Origin: an uncultured Candidatus Bathyarchaeia archaeon | GTDB lineage: Archaea > Thermoproteota > Bathyarchaeia > 40CM-2-53-6 > CAZAQQ01 | NCBI GenBank assembly: GCA_964487485.1 | Contig: CAZAQQ010000003.1 | Coordinates: forward strand, 1-24,377 | Direction: 5' to 3' | Length of the DNA stretch: 24,377 bases | In this document: positions 1,537-11,833 of the stretch, piece by piece | How the letters are laid out: each line of letters opens with the position of its first letter | Numbering within the stretch: the first letter of the stretch is position 1 | Program-made: the position numbers and the translations under genes | Notes under the pieces: generated by a model | What the model saw: only the letters and a program-made list of their open reading frames with translations | What the model was told of the DNA's origin: nothing | Databases searched by the model: none

Positions 1537-2889
1537 TTAATGCTTGCGTTTGTCTAGGAGCCGCCAGACGCGGGTTGCTTTCACTCTCTTCTCCGGTGAA
1601 GTCTTCTCTGCGAGGCCGCCGAAGGGATAAAGCTTAACGTCTACGCTGAATCCAACTCCAGCGCGCAGACCCTCCTCCAACCTTGCCTTTAGGTCTTCCA
1701 CGCTTTTTGTTTTGGCATCAATATACTCAACATGCAATGTACAGACATCAACGCCGCCTGGATTGTCCACTTCAATTAGATACTCGCTGCCTAGTTCTGG
1801 GAACTTGCCCATGGTTGCTTCAAAGGCTGATGGGAAAGACATGATGCCTTTTACCTTGAACATATCGTCTGCTCTGCCTTTTATCGGGGCTATCCTTCGG
1901 AGGGTTCTACCGCATGCGCATGGTTCCTCAATAATGTAGGTTAAGTCCTCTGTATTGTACCTAATCACGGGCATTGCTTCTTTGAATAGGGAGGTAACAA
2001 CCAAGACTCCTTCTTCGCCCGGCCTAAGGGGCTCTTTTGTATCCCTATCCAATATCTCAAATATGTAGCCGTCTTCATTGATGTGCATGCCGTACTCGGG
2101 GCAAACGAATGTTGGAGACCCTATCTCCACTGTGCCCCAGTTATTGTAGGTTTTGCAGCCGAACTTATCTTCTATCCTCTTCCTCATTGGGTCTGGAAGC
2201 GGCTCCGCGGTGTGGGTAGTGATACGAATCTTGAGATCTTTTCTAGGATCAAGACCCATCTTCTCAGCTTGATCCCCGATGTACAGCGCGTAGGATGGCG
2301 TGCATGCAAGAACCGTCGAACCCCAATCCTTCGCAAGCTCAACCTGTCTAATAGTTGGCGTCACAGCTCCACTGCCTGCCGGTACGACCATGGCTCCTAG
2401 CTTCATGGCGCCTTCGCTGAAAGTGAAGCCGGGGATGAAAAGCGAGTATGAGAATGCTACCTGAACTATATCTTTTGACCTAACTCCCTGTATGTATAGC
2501 CTTCTTGCCTGGAGATTGGCTATAACTTGCCAATCATACCATGTGTGGAGAATAGGTTTCGGTTTTCCCGTTGTCCCTGTTGTGGATTGTATTCTAACGA
2601 AGGGAAGATCTCCGAAATCTCCGAAGGGCGGTCGCGCTTGGTATCCTTTCTGCAAGCCAAGCTTGTCGAACCAAGGTAGCTTAGATACGTCTTCAGCTGT
2701 TTTTACATCTTCGGGCCTGACACCTGCTGCTTCCCACAGTTTTCTGTAGTATGGTATTCGATCCCACGCTTTCTCGACCTGCGCTCTAAGCCTCCTGTCT
2801 TGAATCTCCTTAATGGTCTTCCGAGAAGCTTTCTCAAGCTTCTCAAAGGCTGGCCCGTACGGGAAATCTATATCCCATGGTTGAGACAA
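1537..2889 (-). CDS. paaK: Phenylacetate-CoA ligase family (PaaK-like) AMP-forming acyl-CoA ligase
   Basis: 450 aa; STTGTTGKPK P-loop, ACTPSYAL, TAEP, YNNWGTVE, IRYNTEDL and IKGRADDMFKVKG motifs of the PaaK family. The symbol is family-level; the substrate is not established. Confidence 0.9.
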   Translation of the reverse strand: MSQPWDIDFPYGPAFEKLEKASRKTIKEIQDRRLRAQVEKAWDRIPYYRKLWEAAGVRPEDVKTAEDVSKLPWFDKLGLQKGYQARPPFGDFGDLPFVRIQSTTGTTGKPKPILHTWYDWQVIANLQARRLYIQGVRSKDIVQVAFSYSLFIPGFTFSEGAMKLGAMVVPAGSGAVTPTIRQVELAKDWGSTVLACTPSYALYIGDQAEKMGLDPRKDLKIRITTHTAEPLPDPMRKRIEDKFGCKTYNNWGTVEIGSPTFVCPEYGMHINEDGYIFEILDRDTKEPLRPGEEGVLVVTSLFKEAMPVIRYNTEDLTYIIEEPCACGRTLRRIAPIKGRADDMFKVKGIMSFPSAFEATMGKFPELGSEYLIEVDNPGGVDVCTLHVEYIDAKTKSVEDLKARLEEGLRAGVGFSVDVKLYPFGGLAEKTSPEKRVKATRVWRLLDKRKH

Positions 2890-3001: not shown

Positions 3002-3295
3002 ATGTTCCACGCGCTCTATCTTGACTGGCACCAGGTAGGCCCTAGTGGCCAGTTGAAAAAAGCTAATTTTGACTCTAGAAACATAAGGCTAATTCATGAT
3101 AGGGATTTAGGATGGTGTTTTTTTCGAGGAGTTGAAATCCTCAACGCATGGACTAAAGCTGGTTTTCTTAAGGAAAGTGGCTTTTTGAGCAAGAAGTATC
3201 AGCTAACCGAAAACGCAGCGAGACTGCTGTCGAAACACAGAGAGGAGTTGCCCAAAAACTTAAATTTCCTGCGAACTAACAAGCCGACAAATTAG
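3002..3295 (+). CDS. Hypothetical protein, possible winged-helix fragment
   Basis: 97-aa ORF directly upstream of the CoA-transferase genes; ILNAWTKAGFLKESGFLSKKYQLTENAARLL resembles the helix-wing end of wHTH regulators, but the N-terminal half is unconvincing. Confidence 0.35.
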   Translation: MFHALYLDWHQVGPSGQLKKANFDSRNIRLIHDRDLGWCFFRGVEILNAWTKAGFLKESGFLSKKYQLTENAARLLSKHREELPKNLNFLRTNKPTN

Positions 3296-3307: not shown

Positions 3308-4261
3308 TTGGTGCTTTATACCAGTGAGGATAAGCTCATGCCGCTGAGCGAAGCGATCAAGAAATATGTGAATGATGGAGATAAGGTCTGCTTCGGCGGA
3401 GCCTTGATCCTCAGGGAACCTATCGCTGCAATATATGAATTGATCAGGCAGAAGAAGAGGAACTTGCATATTATCGGAACCGCGCATGGCTTTGATGTAG
3501 ATCTGGCTTGTGGCGGGGGGATCGTAGGCACGGAAGAGCATACCTACGTGGCCTACGAGTTCGTTTACCGTGGGGGCTGCCCAAACTATAGAAGAGCAGT
3601 TGAACAAGGTAAAATTGAGGAGAAAGAGAACTGCTGCTACTCTGTCATCGCGGGGCTAAGAGCACAATCTTATGGGCAAACCTTCTATCCTGTAGACTTC
3701 CTCCATGGGACAGAAGACATCAAGTATCATCCGGAATACAAGGAGATTACTTGCCCCTATACAGGCAGAAAACTCATAGCAGTCCCACCTATTAAACCCG
3801 ATGTGGCGATTCTTCATGTTTACAAGGCTGATAAGCGCGGCAACGGCGCGTTGGGAGCGCCTCTTGTCGCCGACGTACTCATGATGAGAGCTGCTAAGAG
3901 GACTATATTGACGGCGGAAGAAATCGAACCTACAAGCTGGTTCACTGAAAGACAGGCCGCTCTAATTCCCTACTTCCACACCGCAGCCGTGAGCCATGCG
4001 CCCTTCGGAGCTCACCCAACTGCTTGCTACCTCTACTACACATACGATAAGGAATTCCTCAATGAATATCTAGAGTATGCGCGTGAGGGAGATGAAAGTA
4101 TGGCGAAATGGCTTGACAAGTACGTTTACGGCGTTTCCAGCCACGATGAGTACTTGAAGAAAGTTGGAGAGGAAAGGTTGAAGCAACTACGAGACTGGAG
4201 AAAGATGAGGGAAGAAGCAGAAAACCTGAGGAAGAAACTGAAGGAGGAATGGGTGATCTAG
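3308..4261 (+). CDS. Family I CoA-transferase alpha subunit (GctA/IpdA-like)
   Basis: MPLSEAIKKYVNDGDKVCFGG, KPDVAILHVYKADKRGN, AAKRTILTAEEI and APFGAHPTAC are typical of glutaconate CoA-transferase A-type subunits. Confidence 0.9.
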   Translation: MVLYTSEDKLMPLSEAIKKYVNDGDKVCFGGALILREPIAAIYELIRQKKRNLHIIGTAHGFDVDLACGGGIVGTEEHTYVAYEFVYRGGCPNYRRAVEQGKIEEKENCCYSVIAGLRAQSYGQTFYPVDFLHGTEDIKYHPEYKEITCPYTGRKLIAVPPIKPDVAILHVYKADKRGNGALGAPLVADVLMMRAAKRTILTAEEIEPTSWFTERQAALIPYFHTAAVSHAPFGAHPTACYLYYTYDKEFLNEYLEYAREGDESMAKWLDKYVYGVSSHDEYLKKVGEERLKQLRDWRKMREEAENLRKKLKEEWVI

Positions 4262-5161
4262 ATGCCGAAGATCGTTGACTATAGTATAGATGAACTTATG
4301 GCCGTCTGTCTTGCTCGATGCATATCCGATGGCGACATGGTTTTTCACGGTGTAGCGTCACCTTTGCCTATGACTGCCCTTTATCTAGCGAAGAAAACTC
4401 ATGCGCCCCATATGATTTATCTCGCAGGAGTTGGTGGCGGACTCGACCCTACGCCACCCTTTCTCCCAGAATCGACAAATGATATTTGGCTGCAATGGGG
4501 ATCAGTGTACGCCCTCACGATAGACAGAGTATTCGACTACTTCGCAACGGGTGACTGCACTGTCATGTTCTTCAGCGGTGGACAAATAGACAAGTACGGA
4601 AGCACCAACAACACTTTGTACGGGAAAGATTGGAGAAGGCCCAAGACAAAGTTCCCAGGAGGCGCAGGAGCCTGCAATCTTCACTCCCTCACACCGAAAG
4701 TTGTTGCGTGGACGACTAGGCATAAGGTGTTCGCCCATCCTAAGACAGGTGAGAAGCTTTACACATTGGTTGATAAGGTTGACTTCGTCACCTCTGGTGG
4801 GTACATTCTTCCAGACCCGAAGGATCCGGCGAGGAAGAGGATGATAACAAGGGAGGAAGCGGGATGTAGACCGGGGACAGGACCCTACAAATGCGTAACT
4901 GACCTAGGTGTTTTCGGGTACGATGAGAAGACGAAGATAATGAAACTCGAGTCTGTACATCCAGATGTTACCGTCAAGGATATTCTTGAAAACACGGAGT
5001 TCAAGCCCGTAATTCCAGATCAGAGCAATGTGCCAACCACGAAACCTCCAGCAAAAGAGGAAGTATTGTTGCTAAGGACTGAAATAGACATATACAGAAT
5101 GCGCGTGCTGGAATTCCGCGGCGGAGCTAAGGAATGCGACTCTCGAAGATACAAATTCTAA
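4262..5161 (+). CDS. Family I CoA-transferase beta subunit (GctB/IpdB-like), canonical catalytic Glu apparently absent
   Basis: DELMAVCLAR, FFSGGQIDKYGSTN, FPGGAGA, VDFVTSGG, VTDLGVF and LESVHPDVT motifs. GGTGA ribosome-binding site overlaps the end of the alpha gene. IYLAG occupies the position of the usual xxESG motif. Confidence 0.9.
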   Translation: MPKIVDYSIDELMAVCLARCISDGDMVFHGVASPLPMTALYLAKKTHAPHMIYLAGVGGGLDPTPPFLPESTNDIWLQWGSVYALTIDRVFDYFATGDCTVMFFSGGQIDKYGSTNNTLYGKDWRRPKTKFPGGAGACNLHSLTPKVVAWTTRHKVFAHPKTGEKLYTLVDKVDFVTSGGYILPDPKDPARKRMITREEAGCRPGTGPYKCVTDLGVFGYDEKTKIMKLESVHPDVTVKDILENTEFKPVIPDQSNVPTTKPPAKEEVLLLRTEIDIYRMRVLEFRGGAKECDSRRYKF

Positions 5162-5235: not shown

Positions 5236-5625
5236 CTAATTCCGCGTTCGGTGTTGCTCAGCATAAGGGCCATGCTGATTTTCCGTTACTACACCTGTTA
5301 CGAGGTCGATTGCGAACAATATGTCTTCTCTAGGCAGCATGCTTGATAGTGTCGCAAGAACTTCTCTAAGCAAGTCCTTTGGCACAAATTCCGGCGGCTC
5401 CATAGCCAGTCTCAGCAACTGAACGGCTTTTCGTTGTGCCGGGAAATTTAGTCTAGACCGCGCTAGCTCCTCCAACGTTACGCCCAGAATCACCGACTCT
5501 CTTTCGTAGAGATAGAGGAGCACATCTGCGATTTCTTCAGAGGAGACTGACTCAACTTTCTTAAGAGCCAGCAAGAGTTTCAGTCGCCTCTTTCGACGCC
5601 TTTCAAGCCCAGAATAATTGGTCAC
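5236..5625 (-). CDS. Hypothetical helical protein
   Basis: GGAGG 7 nt upstream of GTG 5625 gives a ~129-aa ORF (MTNYSGLERRRKRRLKLLLALKK...); protein-like composition; no family recognised. Confidence 0.55.
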   Translation of the reverse strand: MTNYSGLERRRKRRLKLLLALKKVESVSSEEIADVLLYLYERESVILGVTLEELARSRLNFPAQRKAVQLLRLAMEPPEFVPKDLLREVLATLSSMLPREDILFAIDLVTGVVTENQHGPYAEQHRTRN

Positions 5626-5744
5626 CACTGCGCCTCCTAATTCCTCCCTGTTATGAATGTGAATGGCAATCATGTGCATTTATGAAAGTAGCATCGTTCT
5701 AGCTAGCATAAAGGTCACATTCTTCATCACAACTCCACTTTGCG

Positions 5745-6032
5745 CTAGGCAAACCTATCGCCGAAAACTTTGTAATCTTTCTCCAAAAAGTTAGATAGTT
5801 GTCTAGCTAAAATCTTTGTTGAAGACTTCGAGGCCGAAGTTCCTAGCATACTAAACTCATAATCGCACCTGGGGCACCGAACTCTAGGGCATCGAAGAAC
5901 AGACTGTTGGCAACCAACGCAGGCTACGGCTCTAGAGTAAAGGATTGAAAACCTAAATCCGCAGTTGGGACACTGCACAAGGTTCGTGACTTTCTTTGTT
6001 CTTCTTATTTCTTCGATTTCCCAAGGTTCCAA
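5745..6032 (-). CDS. Small Cys-rich (7 Cys) zinc-ribbon or Fe-S-like protein
   Basis: CPNC-x13-CVGC-x6-C-x4-CPRC. The start is moved to TTG 6032 because the track ORF (to 6203) overlaps the corrinoid gene on the other strand. Confidence 0.75.
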   Translation of the reverse strand: MEPWEIEEIRRTKKVTNLVQCPNCGFRFSILYSRAVACVGCQQSVLRCPRVRCPRCDYEFSMLGTSASKSSTKILARQLSNFLEKDYKVFGDRFA

Positions 6033-6099
6033 AACGGAAGCCAGCTCTGGAGCAAACTCTAATATATCTAGTAGGTTAAAGCTAAATCCGGCGATTATT

Positions 6100-6738
6100 A
6101 TGTCTTCTGAAAAGGAAATTCTTGAAAGGCTGAAAGCATCTGTGGCCGCAGGCGAGGAGGAAACTGCGGAGAGATTGGCTAAGGAAGCGCTCAGCAAGAT
6201 CAAGCCAACAAAAATCTTGGAAGCCGCGTCAGCGGGGATGGCAGTTATGGCGGAAAAGTACTCGCGTAACGAAGTATTTCTGCCTGAGGCTACTGTTACT
6301 ACAGCCGCTTTCTACAAGGCGTTTGAAGTCGTACAGCCTGCGATGAAGGAGGCTGCGCCGCCAAAGCTCGGTAAAGTAGTTATTGGAAGCGGCTTTGGGG
6401 ATGTGCATGATGTTGGAAAGAACTTGGTTAAAGTCATGCTAGAAGCAGCAGGGTTTGAAATCTATGATTTAGGACGTAATGTGACAGCTGAACAATTCCT
6501 AAACAAGGCGATGGAAATCAAGGCGGATATAGTAGCCATATCAGCCTTATACACGCCTACTGTCGTTGACATAAGGAGGTTTGTTAAGCTGCTGAATGAG
6601 AAAGGTGTCAAGGGCAAAATCAAAGTTATGATAGGCGGCGGCTCTACGTCGCCAGCGATTGCTGAAAGCCTAGGCATAACCTACGGAAAAGACTTGCATG
6701 ACGCAGTTTTGAAGGCCAAAGCCTTGGTGGGTAGGTGA
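6100..6738 (+). CDS. Methyltransferase cognate corrinoid (B12-binding) protein
   Basis: Four-helix cap followed by the DxHxxG motif (GDVHDVGKNLV), LEAAGFEIYDLGRNV, SALYTPT and IGGG. Real start ATG 6100 (212 aa); the track's N-terminal 45 aa overlap the opposite-strand gene. Confidence 0.93.
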   Translation: MSSEKEILERLKASVAAGEEETAERLAKEALSKIKPTKILEAASAGMAVMAEKYSRNEVFLPEATVTTAAFYKAFEVVQPAMKEAAPPKLGKVVIGSGFGDVHDVGKNLVKVMLEAAGFEIYDLGRNVTAEQFLNKAMEIKADIVAISALYTPTVVDIRRFVKLLNEKGVKGKIKVMIGGGSTSPAIAESLGITYGKDLHDAVLKAKALVGR

Positions 6739-6744
6739 GGGAGC

Positions 6745-7818
6745 ATGGCAAGTAAGGAGCTTTCTTCTTTCGACAGGATTGGGATGGCGGCAAGAGGGGA
6801 AGAACCGGATCGCGTGCCTATGGGTTGGCTTGGACACTTTGAGCAGGGAATTGCCCTGCCTAATGTGAAAGTGTTTGAGGTTGTGACTGACAAGTCAGGT
6901 CGAAGGCTCTTTCAAGGAATAAAGGCTGTTTTTGATCGTTACAACCCAGATGCAATCACTGTGTTCACTTACACAATCGTGGAAGCTGTAGCTATGGGAA
7001 CAAAGCCCAAGTATTATCCGGATATTCCGCCAGGTCCGTTTGAATATGTGGTGAAGGAGCCGAGGGATCTTGATTTGCTTAAGATTCCGGATCCTAGGTT
7101 CGATGGAGATTTGCCCTGCATATACAACGCCATAAGGCAGGTTGTGAAGGAGTATGGGGGCAGAGTACCTATCGCATCGAATACGACGGGGCCATGCGCA
7201 GTCGCGGCAAGGATCAGAGGCCTTTGGGAGTTTTGCTACGATATTATGAAGAGGCCTTGGTTTGCACATGACTTAATGGAGCATGCAACTCAAGCTTGCA
7301 TCAACATTATCAGCCACTACATACCCCTAGGCCTCACAGGAATAGGTTGGGGAGCGGGCTCTGAGACAACCATAAGCGCAGACCAATTCAGGAAGTTCGT
7401 GTTGCCCTATGACAGGAGATATGTTAGGGCAGCTAGAAAAATGGGTGTTTACAGCTTTACTAGGCATGTGTGCTCCGGCCCAAGCGCGCCCTACGTTGTC
7501 GATGCCTACACCGACATAGCGAGAGACGGGGCCTACACCATTTGGGGCCTTTTCGAGTCTCCTGAGGTTATGGCTAAGAAAAAAGAGCAGTTTCCAAAGC
7601 CAATCGTAACAGGAGGAGGCCCGAACACATCGCTCGTACAACTGGGCAAGCCTGCAGAAGTAGTAAACGAGGTAAAAAGATGGATCAAGACAGTGGCTCC
7701 TGGCGGGCGATACCTGTTCATAGGTGACTGCGGAATCCCACCTGCTGCAACACTTGAAAACGTAGACGCCTACGTAAAAACAGCGAAGGAAGCTGGAAAA
7801 TATCCGATAAAAATCTAG
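6745..7818 (+). CDS. UroD-fold cobalamin-dependent methyltransferase (MtaA/CmuA family, Zn-thiol type)
   Basis: EEPDRVP start, VEAVAMG, TTGP, H241-V-C243 and C329 (GDCGIPP...ENV) form the HxC...C zinc site; 6 nt downstream of the corrinoid gene. Confidence 0.88.
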   Translation: MASKELSSFDRIGMAARGEEPDRVPMGWLGHFEQGIALPNVKVFEVVTDKSGRRLFQGIKAVFDRYNPDAITVFTYTIVEAVAMGTKPKYYPDIPPGPFEYVVKEPRDLDLLKIPDPRFDGDLPCIYNAIRQVVKEYGGRVPIASNTTGPCAVAARIRGLWEFCYDIMKRPWFAHDLMEHATQACINIISHYIPLGLTGIGWGAGSETTISADQFRKFVLPYDRRYVRAARKMGVYSFTRHVCSGPSAPYVVDAYTDIARDGAYTIWGLFESPEVMAKKKEQFPKPIVTGGGPNTSLVQLGKPAEVVNEVKRWIKTVAPGGRYLFIGDCGIPPAATLENVDAYVKTAKEAGKYPIKI

Positions 7819-10072: not shown

Positions 10073-11833
10073 CTACCCGTGAAGAGCGCGTCTAACCTCT
10101 TCCCACTTTTTCTTTTGAGTAGCGAGCTTACATATCTGAACAGCGTTTCCCGGGTCTTTGCCATATACGAGGAGGCTTGCCGTTTCGGCGAAGGCCTTGT
10201 CCAAGGCACCTCCACCAACTCCAAATACAATGTCAACTCCCTCTTCCTTAAGTTTCTTAGCCGTTGCCACAAAGGCTGGCCTAGTAGTCGTCATCAGTGC
10301 AGAGCCAAGAACTGCTATGGGCTTGTACTTCTTAATCGCCTCGGCGACGGTTTCGGGAGGTACAGATTTTCCCAAGTCAATTACCTCGAAGCCGCTGGCG
10401 GAGACTATTGCTTTAACAATGTTTTTTCCTATGTCATGTACGTCGCCGTCAGCGCAGTGCACTAATATAGTGCCCAGCTTTTTCACAGCGGCCAGTTCTT
10501 CCTTGCAGACTGCTAGTCCAGCTTGCATAGCGGAATTAGCTAGTAGGATTTCAGGAACGTAGGCTAATCCCTCATTGTAAAGTTTACCCGCAGCTTGTAC
10601 CCCTGGCAGGAGACCTAGGTTCACGATGTCCACGCCTTTAGAGCCTTGTTTGAGAGCCTTCTCACAGAGCTGCCTAGTCTTGGTTTCATCTCCTCTAAGC
10701 ACAGCTTCAGAGATAGACCCGTAGGGTTCATCTTTGGGCATAATATCCTTTACTAACTGAAGAGGTTCTACGGCCCTAGCTTTGGGCGCCTCGGGCTTAG
10801 CTTCCAAGCCTACGGGTGCTCTTTCCTCAAGCTTGAACTTCTCAGCCACCTCTAAGAGCATCCTAATATTTTCCAGCGGAGTTCTAGGCGCTATTGTGCA
10901 TCCAGACGATAGGATGTCTATGCCTGCGCGCAAGGCTTTGAGAGATTCTCTTTCCACATCTGCTATCGAACCCTGGAGAAGAACTGAGACTGGCGCGATG
11001 TTTCCAACGAGCGATATCTTGTTTCCCACTACCTGCCTAGCATAGGCCACATCTACCTTTTCCTCGAATGAAAAACAATCCACGTCAGTTTCCGGGATAT
11101 ATTTCATGTGGCCGCTGGTATTTCCGCAGATATGGAGTACGCAGGGAACATCGATCTTGCTGAAGACTTTTTTGTGGGCTGGAGCTACAAGATCTCGGTA
11201 TGTGTCAGCGCTTATCAAATCGCCTGACGAAGTGGGATCGGAAATAGTGACTATGTCTACCCCTGACCTAGTGGCTGCGGATGCGAATTCCGTAGAAACG
11301 TAAGCCAGCTTATCCAGCGCTTCCTCCACTTTCTCCGGGTTTGTCTTCACCCAAGAGACAAACCTGTCTACTCCAAATACATGACCAGCAATTGTGAAAG
11401 GACCCGTAACTTTCACGGTAAGCGGGATCTTGTCTGAGACCTTTTCCCTCAGGATTTCAATGGCTTCCAAGGCTACGGGTATGCGTCCTTTTTCCACAAT
11501 CTTTTCCGGAATCTTGAGGTTATCTACGTCTTTGAATGCTGGCCCAAGCACTGAGGGAGTCCTATCCACACGTCCCTTATCTATTGGGCAGCCCAATGCT
11601 TCAGCTTCGACGCTAAGGCAAAAGGGTAGCGTCGTAGTTGGCAAGCCCGTTAACTCGTAGGTGGCCGCGGCAAGTCTAGCCATCTTCTCAGGATCCCAGT
11701 GGGCGTCGGGCCAGTAAGTCTTAGAAGCTTCCATGGCGTGAACTGTGGTAGCAACAACAGGGAGGTAAGCAGGAACCCTGTCTACCCTCCCGCCCAGGAG
11801 AGCTGAAAGGATTCTTCTTCTAGTTGTCAGCAA
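10073..11833 (-). CDS. Fused MtaA/CmuA-type methyltransferase (N-terminal) and MtaC-like corrinoid protein (C-terminal)
   Basis: Residues 1-333: LPFCLSVEAEALGC, GPFTIAGH, H234-I-C236, C312 (SSGCTIAPRTPLENI). Pro/Ala/Glu-rich linker. Residues ~365-586: cap helices, HCADGDVHDIGKNIV, GSALMTTT, GGGA. One uninterrupted 586-aa ORF. Confidence 0.92.
   Translation of the reverse strand: MLTTRRRILSALLGGRVDRVPAYLPVVATTVHAMEASKTYWPDAHWDPEKMARLAAATYELTGLPTTTLPFCLSVEAEALGCPIDKGRVDRTPSVLGPAFKDVDNLKIPEKIVEKGRIPVALEAIEILREKVSDKIPLTVKVTGPFTIAGHVFGVDRFVSWVKTNPEKVEEALDKLAYVSTEFASAATRSGVDIVTISDPTSSGDLISADTYRDLVAPAHKKVFSKIDVPCVLHICGNTSGHMKYIPETDVDCFSFEEKVDVAYARQVVGNKISLVGNIAPVSVLLQGSIADVERESLKALRAGIDILSSGCTIAPRTPLENIRMLLEVAEKFKLEERAPVGLEAKPEAPKARAVEPLQLVKDIMPKDEPYGSISEAVLRGDETKTRQLCEKALKQGSKGVDIVNLGLLPGVQAAGKLYNEGLAYVPEILLANSAMQAGLAVCKEELAAVKKLGTILVHCADGDVHDIGKNIVKAIVSASGFEVIDLGKSVPPETVAEAIKKYKPIAVLGSALMTTTRPAFVATAKKLKEEGVDIVFGVGGGALDKAFAETASLLVYGKDPGNAVQICKLATQKKKWEEVRRALHG

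Follow-up and report, generated by a model that had tools for sequence, protein, structure and literature searches.

The question raised by this locus is whether a gene pair that every source annotates as a glutaconate CoA-transferase can transfer coenzyme A (CoA) at all. The pair encodes an alpha and a beta subunit and lies in a stretch of 24,377 nucleotides (contig CAZAQQ010000003.1, positions 1 to 24,377, assembly GCA_964487485.1; hereafter the window) from an uncultured Candidatus Bathyarchaeia archaeon. An earlier, sequence-only reading of this DNA had suggested that both known catalytic glutamates are missing, that a Cys pair has taken the place of one of them, and that the enzyme is a Cys-based, third mechanistic variant of the family rather than an ordinary transferase. 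Our alignments agree with the direction of this proposal and correct it in two respects. We consider it an evenly poised matter whether the pair is indeed a heterodimeric, Cys-dependent enzyme that converts an acyl-CoA, without transferring CoA, on the family-I CoA-transferase fold, and the evidence that suggests this is set out below.

The pair has the glutaconate-CoA-transferase (family-I) fold, with two homologous PF01144 subunits. Both subunits match PF01144 above its cut-off, and no curated NCBIfam model came near its cut-off for either. In sequence searches of PDB chains the best solved match of alpha was GctA of the glutaconate CoA-transferase GctAB of Acidaminococcus fermentans (1POI_A, E 7e-35; 1.5e-57 in a profile search), followed by AibA (4.5e-29) and IpdA (1e-15), and the best solved match of beta was AibB (9e-26), followed by GctB (5e-24) and IpdB (7e-10). 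The two-subunit architecture and the motif GAHPxxCY are shared with GctAB. An AlphaFold2 model of an alpha-TAG-beta read-through was built from alpha and beta homologues aligned in blocks; its mean predicted local distance difference test score (pLDDT) was 82.5 and its predicted template modelling score (pTM) 0.59, and the per-domain models were good. The alpha half of this model gave Foldseek template modelling (TM) scores of 0.79 to GctA, 0.83 to AibA and 0.82-0.83 to IpdA, and the fused model matched SCOT and YdiF with probability 1.0. The loop following beta Gly56 is disordered in the fused model, and the catalytic residues discussed here were mapped by sequence and profile alignment, not by structural superposition.

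In GctB the catalytic Glu54 forms the CoA thioester. The sequence-only reading had placed Ala or Gly at the equivalent site of the window beta and had singled out Ala55 (4424-4426) within the peptide HMIYLAGVGG, and both peptide and position are exact by translation and raw bases (Ala55 is gca at 4424-4426, Gly56 is gga at 4427-4429, within HMIYLAGVGGG). That there is no Glu at this site stands, but the residue in question is Gly56 and Ala55 merely its neighbour, because it is Gly56 that aligns, in phmmer and profile alignments to PDB chains, with AibB Cys56B, the residue which according to the literature stands in place of the Gct catalytic Glu. Note that the five AibB chains in the PDB differ at this single residue (Cys56B, or Ala, Ser, Asn or Val in the variants), which is the one varied in entries 5N00-5N03. 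In MAFFT alignments the Glu of the ExG motif of canonical homologues also falls on Gly56. The residue at the Glu site is Gly in nearly all betas of the family, and the beta Glu is absent across the clade. A Gly (Gly57) also occupies the catalytic Glu site of IpdB, and IpdAB showed no CoA-transferase activity (PMC5380842), which supports a non-transferase reading of the window pair.

The alpha subunit carries Cys109-Cys110 at 3632-3637, in the peptide GKIEEKENCCYSV (numbering of the 317-aa open reading frame, ORF), again exactly as first described from translation and raw bases. The sequence-only reading had aligned this Cys pair to the catalytic Glu of IpdA, the alpha subunit of a COCHEA-CoA ring-cleaving hydrolase of Mycobacterium tuberculosis and Rhodococcus jostii (PDB 6CO6, 6COJ, 6CON), and we reach the same alignment: 6CO6 and 6COJ (title 'IpdAB E105A') differ in a single residue, Glu in the former and Ala in the latter, and it is the second Cys, Cys110, that aligns with it. 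The match has a high posterior probability in a single-sequence alignment and recurs in a profile alignment (E 1e-40). Glu105 is reportedly the catalytic base of IpdAB. The two enzymes thus share the fold, a Gly at the beta Glu site and a candidate catalytic residue on alpha in the same column, but the residue is Glu in IpdA and Cys in the window alpha, the sequences are distant, and IpdAB belongs to the steroid KstR2 regulon, whereas no steroid (KstR2 / HIP catabolic) genes occur within the 24-kb window. The corresponding residue is Gln in GctA and Gly in AibA.

Conservation of the CC motif had been proposed as a check, and the second Cys proved to be invariant in all 119 full-length alpha homologues, down to 38% identity, while the first is kept in 108 (91%) and replaced by Gly or Asp in the other 11. 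This conservation exceeds chance. The family motif is [DE]xCC[YN]T, with ENCCYS as the window version. The acidic residue at position -3 relative to the Cys also occurs in GctA, AibA and IpdA and hence is not specific to the family. More characteristic are the invariant His50, Glu74, His131 and Glu133 of alpha (numbering of a 307-aa gene call), which are near-absent from the three solved relatives. A further check concerned the possibility that some other Glu has taken over; in the alignments no other Glu of the pair falls on the beta Glu site or the IpdA Glu column, and beta Glu70 is present only in the closest clade.

The residues at the two sites were also compared across the superfamily, in a sample of 25 alpha/beta gene pairs or natural fusions (L numbers denote loci, P numbers superfamily representatives). 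An alpha Cys without a beta Glu occurs in 14 of the 25 (the window, L001, L006, L008, L010, L012-L014, L022-L026 and the fused P0173), an alpha Glu of the IpdA type without a beta Glu in 6 (L019-L021 and the fused P0262, P0273 and P0298), and a beta Glu with neither Cys nor Glu on alpha in 5 (L003-L005, P0206 and P0306). The three states are mutually exclusive in this sample; outside it stand the fusions P0214 and P0266, which have none of the three residues, and P0312, whose beta half is unalignable. Over 151 sequences (the query and its 150 best 50%-identity representatives) the Cys110 column contains Glu (48), Asn (28), Cys (24), His (11) and Gly (10). Near-identical motif contexts swap Glu and Cys only, e.g. 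EHTEY and EHACY, and because of this interchange we regard the column as a catalytic hot spot.

Two side observations belong to this comparison. The occurrence of His and Gly in the column, together with P0214 and P0266, suggests that more catalytic variants may exist among the superfamily representatives (P0172-P0320). Also, L019 (1471-3240), L020 (1459-3187) and L021 (1420-3170), from same-order archaeal relatives of the window organism, have alpha 'EHTEYS' with Glu at the Cys column and beta 'MQLAGN' without Glu, i.e. a catalytic layout of the IpdAB type far from any steroid context.

With this family the family-I CoA-transferase scaffold would have four catalytic solutions, the other three being the beta-Glu transferases, the alpha-Glu IpdAB hydrolases and the AibAB decarboxylases. 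The sequence-only reading was right that the IpdA Glu column carries an invariant Cys and that the beta Glu is absent, but its count of three was wrong because the AibAB decarboxylase is already the third variant. In a single alpha column Glu, Cys and neutral residues replace one another, and these changes go along with the loss of the beta Glu; hundreds of database entries named 'glutaconate CoA-transferase' are probably unable to transfer CoA.

It is instructive to compare the window pair with CoATa/CoATb ('glutaconate CoA-transferase subunits A/B'), which belong to the same family and are encoded in bacterial coenzyme-M epoxide (ethene, vinyl chloride, propene) clusters, e.g. in Methylohalobius crimeensis, Mycolicibacterium spp. 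and Xanthobacter autotrophicus Py2. CoATa is about 42% identical to the window alpha and shares the [DE]xCC[YN]T motif; CoATb is 37-41% identical to the window beta over its full length. The Gly at the Glu site, an insertion after WTTRH and a C-terminal R..EF...KR.F tail are common to the window beta, CoATb and the betas of L010 and L012-L014. Both systems have an acyl-CoA synthetase partner. They differ in their other neighbours, since the bacterial pairs are accompanied by an EaCoMT-like gene, short-chain dehydrogenases/reductases (SDRs), a reductase resembling 2-ketopropyl-coenzyme M oxidoreductase/carboxylase (2-KPCC) or coenzyme A-disulfide reductase (CoADR), and coenzyme-M biosynthesis genes, and the window pair by corrinoid methyltransferases and a PaaK-like ligase. 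The CoATa/CoATb genes are induced by ethylene in M. crimeensis (PMC11507031), and the literature merely presumes that their products transfer CoA to malonate, as part of a route to acetyl-CoA that is itself hypothetical (PMC11507031, PMC8727900, PMC6440738). In the literature searched we found no assay of CoATa/CoATb function and no paper that remarks on the missing Glu or on the Cys of this family. The steps of ethene and vinyl-chloride assimilation past 2-ketoethyl-CoM are hypothetical, and the sequences make the CoA-transfer role given to CoATa/CoATb unlikely.

From these comparisons we infer the class of reaction and the role of the ligase as follows. A carboxylic acid would be converted to its CoA thioester by a separate acyl-CoA synthetase, PaaK-like in the window and ADP-forming in most relatives, and the acyl-CoA would be taken up by the alpha/beta active site. 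There Cys110, in the place of IpdA Glu105, might act as a covalent nucleophile or as an acid/base, possibly assisted by the family-specific His and Glu residues. The bond next to the thioester would be broken via an enolate, either C-C (a retro-Claisen, thiolase-like cleavage) or C-S, and a shorter acyl-CoA, probably acetyl-CoA, would leave. Three versions fit the bacterial clusters about equally: a thiolase-like retro-Claisen cleavage of a beta-oxoacyl-CoA; a malonyl-CoA decarboxylation in which the Cys donates the proton; and a thiol-mediated C-S cleavage of a CoM-thioether acyl-CoA, in which the adjacent reductase would recycle the Cys. We speculate further that the alpha-Cys family as a whole turns thiol- or coenzyme-M-linked (or beta-oxo) C2/C3 acyl-CoAs into acetyl-CoA by Cys-dependent C-S/C-C cleavage, and that this step, together with an ADP-forming acyl-CoA synthetase and a thiol/disulfide reductase, is common to aerobic ethene/vinyl-chloride degraders and methyl-reducing methanogenic archaea; this extension is doubtful.

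For the Cys-dependent non-transferase itself, the residues, the covariation and the separate synthetases favour the direction proposed in the sequence-only reading, and conservation, covariation and homology together point to a catalytic role of Cys110. Several points weigh against it. The covariation was seen in a small sample of mutually related members and amounts to strong circumstantial evidence, not to proof. The first Cys is Gly or Asp in some homologues, and a vicinal dithiol is therefore not essential everywhere. According to the literature the active-site Cys of AibAB is dispensable, and the family-specific Glu27, Glu74 and Glu133 of alpha are alternative candidates for the catalytic residue. 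In the fused model the arrangement of alpha against beta cannot be relied on, given a pTM of 0.59 and an rmsd (root-mean-square deviation) of 12-14 Å to the naturally fused SCOT. Finally, archaeal and bacterial neighbourhoods differ, which makes a single common substrate unlikely.

Since AibB is the best solved match of beta, one has to ask whether the pair could be a cofactor-free acyl-CoA decarboxylase like AibAB, in which the alpha Cys is only the proton donor to the enolate formed when malonyl-CoA or another carboxy-acyl-CoA is converted to acetyl-CoA and CO2. AibAB, the 3-methylglutaconyl-CoA decarboxylase of Myxococcus xanthus (PDB 5MZW-5N03), shares the fold and likewise acts via an acyl-CoA enolate without being a transferase; calculations in the literature favour Cys as its general acid. 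The hypothetical ethene/vinyl-chloride route moreover depends on a conversion of malonyl-CoA to acetyl-CoA to which no enzyme has been assigned (PMC8727900), and the acyl-CoA synthetase of the clusters could produce the malonyl-CoA. The residues do not fit this picture well. AibB Glu72B, the proposed ultimate proton source, aligns to Asn73 of the window beta, so that the Cys56B/Glu72B relay is absent here (Gly56/Asn73), and AibA, which at 265 aa is shorter than the window alpha, has no Cys in the critical column. A mere proton donor is replaceable in AibAB, yet the alpha Cys is invariant (119/119). The genomic context differs as well, as none of the genes for HMG-CoA (3-hydroxy-3-methylglutaryl-CoA) synthase, LiuC and AibC, i.e. 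the alternative isovaleryl-CoA biosynthesis of the Liu/Aib type, lies within the window. We regard such a decarboxylase as unlikely, if worth keeping in mind.

It is less probable still that the Cys pair is non-catalytic and catalysis occurs elsewhere. The two Cys could form a redox switch (a vicinal disulfide), serve as metal ligands together with His50, His131 and Glu133, or be structural; the family-specific His, Glu and Asp invariants next to Cys-Cys could make a metal or redox site, and genes of the disulfide-reductase type are found nearby (Pyr_redox_2 in 5 out of 5 bacterial loci, CCG-domain proteins in L006, L008 and L024). However, the Cys110 column is the catalytic position of IpdA, the swap of Glu and Cys in like motifs is more in keeping with a residue of the active site than with a regulatory one far from it, and the first Cys is dispensable in 9% of the sequences. 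The established annotation, an ordinary CoA-transferase, would require the glutamyl-CoA to form on a relocated carboxylate, for which the invariant family-specific Glu74 or Glu133 of alpha, or Glu70 of beta, might be considered. Annotation sources and the etn-cluster literature, which assumes CoA transfer to malonate, speak for it; but no Glu aligns to the ExG site, Glu70 does not extend beyond the closest clade, a beta Glu and an alpha Cys occur together in none of the 25 pairs, a separate CoA ligase or synthetase accompanies the pair, and the Glu-less relative IpdAB is devoid of transferase activity (PMC5380842). We think this explanation very improbable.

The positions of the pair and of its neighbours are collected in Table 1. 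The beta ATG directly abuts the TAG stop codon of alpha in the same frame. The database gene call starts alpha at ATG 3338 (307 aa), which renumbers the cysteines to Cys99/Cys100. We prefer the longer ORF because the alpha homologues retain the ten residues upstream of this ATG (N-terminal 'YT..DKLM'), and the true start is probably TTG 3308 or GTG 3311. A 97-aa ORF upstream of alpha (3002-3295) was considered as a part of the system and rejected, as it has no family match and no homologue near other pairs. A promoter/terminator scan of the window with bacterial models gave no signal above shuffled controls.

Table 1. Location of the alpha/beta pair, its diagnostic codons and selected neighbouring genes in the window.
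Feature	Position	Strand	Remarks
Alpha subunit	3308..4261	+	317 aa from TTG 3308; PF01144 E 7e-18
Beta subunit	4262..5161	+	299 aa; PF01144 E 7e-12
Cys109-Cys110 codons (tgctgc), alpha	3632..3637	+	Cys110: invariant residue on IpdA Glu105 column
Ala55-Gly56 codons, beta	4424..4429	+	Gly56: canonical catalytic Glu (ExG) position
PaaK-like AMP-forming acyl-CoA ligase, divergent to the pair	1537..2889	-	AMP-binding and AMP-binding_C_2
Small conserved protein beside beta	5236..5679	-	147 aa; no Pfam or NCBIfam match
Corrinoid (B12-binding) protein, recurring neighbour	5965..6738	+	B12-binding and B12-binding_2
URO-D (uroporphyrinogen decarboxylase) family (MtaA/CmuA-like) methyltransferase, recurring neighbour	6745..7818	+	PF01208 E 4e-40; weak MtaA/MtbA matches
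MtaA-like methylcobamide:CoM methyltransferase fused to corrinoid domain	10073..11833	-	PRK06252 366 bits, cut-off 244

The divergent ligase matches PaaK models with 297-333 bits, i.e. under the equivalog cut-offs, and is the likely supplier of the acyl-CoA substrate of the pair. The 147-aa protein has homologues (34-42% identity) directly after beta in L006 (9995-10312, -), L008 (9898-10296, +) and L024 (6119-6583, -), and from this arrangement it appears to be a conserved partner of Bathyarchaeia-type pairs, although it lacks a family assignment. The corrinoid protein scores 144 bits with TIGR02370, under the 215-bit cut-off. In the fusion gene the corrinoid domain is C-terminal (MtaA_Meth 343 bits, MtaC models 187-205 bits); its product is reminiscent of the Methanosarcina fusions MtsD/F/H, which act on methyl sulfides.

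The window genome (1.53 Mb, 82% complete) contains McrG and a near-canonical McrA on another contig (G000:C90, L017 38-2214; TIGR03256 755 bits against a cut-off of 768), and we take the organism to be a methanogen of the methyl-reducing type from the Bathyarchaeia neighbourhood. McrA was found in none of 40 same-order genomes examined, so its presence here reflects either a rare lineage bearing methyl-coenzyme M reductase (MCR) or a binning artefact. ComA was not found in the 82%-complete genome. A survey of the co-occurrence of the pair with MCR in 401 same-phylum and 41 related genomes was uninformative, because the distant matches inspected (at most 42% identity, L019-L021) belong to a different subfamily, which lacks the Cys motif, and McrA is absent from all same-order relatives.

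Close homologues of the pair (59-79% identity) come from metagenomic contigs and one Bathyarchaeia metagenome-assembled genome (MAG), those at about 50% identity from Methanomassiliicoccales, and those at about 42% from bacteria; a single-protein scan of genome contigs returned one family member only, L001. An acyl-CoA synthetase lies within 9 kb of the pair in 8 out of 8 distinct archaeal loci and in 3 out of 5 bacterial loci. It is of the ADP-forming type in these three bacterial loci as well as in L001, L006, L008, L010, L022 and L023, and PaaK-like in the window and L024. Archaeal pairs are usually found near corrinoid methyltransfer genes (URO-D methyltransferases, a corrinoid protein, the RACo activase), and URO-D and corrinoid genes stand beside the pair in L010, L022, L023 and L024. 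Three or four Methanomassiliicoccales genomes have a common order: small Cys-rich ORF, alpha, beta, synthetase alpha, synthetase beta, URO-D, corrinoid protein, URO-D. In archaea the family marks a conserved module of pair, acyl-CoA synthetase and corrinoid methyltransferases in methyl-reducing methanogens.

The five bacterial loci sampled all represent one cluster type, with an EaCoMT-like Meth_synt_2 gene, one or two SDRs, a disulfide oxidoreductase, the pair and a coenzyme-M biosynthesis set. This set consists of DUF7714, ComA and two Lyase_1 genes, with PALP in 4 of the 5 loci. The disulfide oxidoreductase is either about 523 aa long with a CxxxxC motif like that of 2-KPCC, or 440 aa long without it. 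The link of the family to coenzyme M is solid in bacteria and no more than suggestive in archaea, since no McrA was seen in the Bathyarchaeia MAG behind L001 though two Methanomassiliicoccales genomes that carry the pair have it.

A few minor features of these loci may be added. The small Cys-rich, zinc-ribbon-like ORFs just upstream of the Methanomassiliicoccales pairs (L010 7393-7854, L022 7646-7873, L023 7679-7864) are 48-61% mutually identical, and a Zn_ribbon_8 ORF is present in some bacterial coenzyme-M clusters (L012 6457-6666, L014 6123-6320); BLAST showed no relation between the two groups. Genes with FAD_binding_4 and Fe-S/CCG domains (GlcD/GlcF- or HdrD-like) recur in L006 (1-2408), L008 (1-2525) and L024 (126-2698), and there are none in the window. 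Near the pair of the Bathyarchaeia MAG (L001 308-2111, -) are genes for an NMT1/SsuA-like binding protein and a permease, i.e. a sulfonate/nitrate-type ABC (ATP-binding cassette) transporter, and SsuABC genes also adjoin the mycobacterial etn clusters (PMC8727900).

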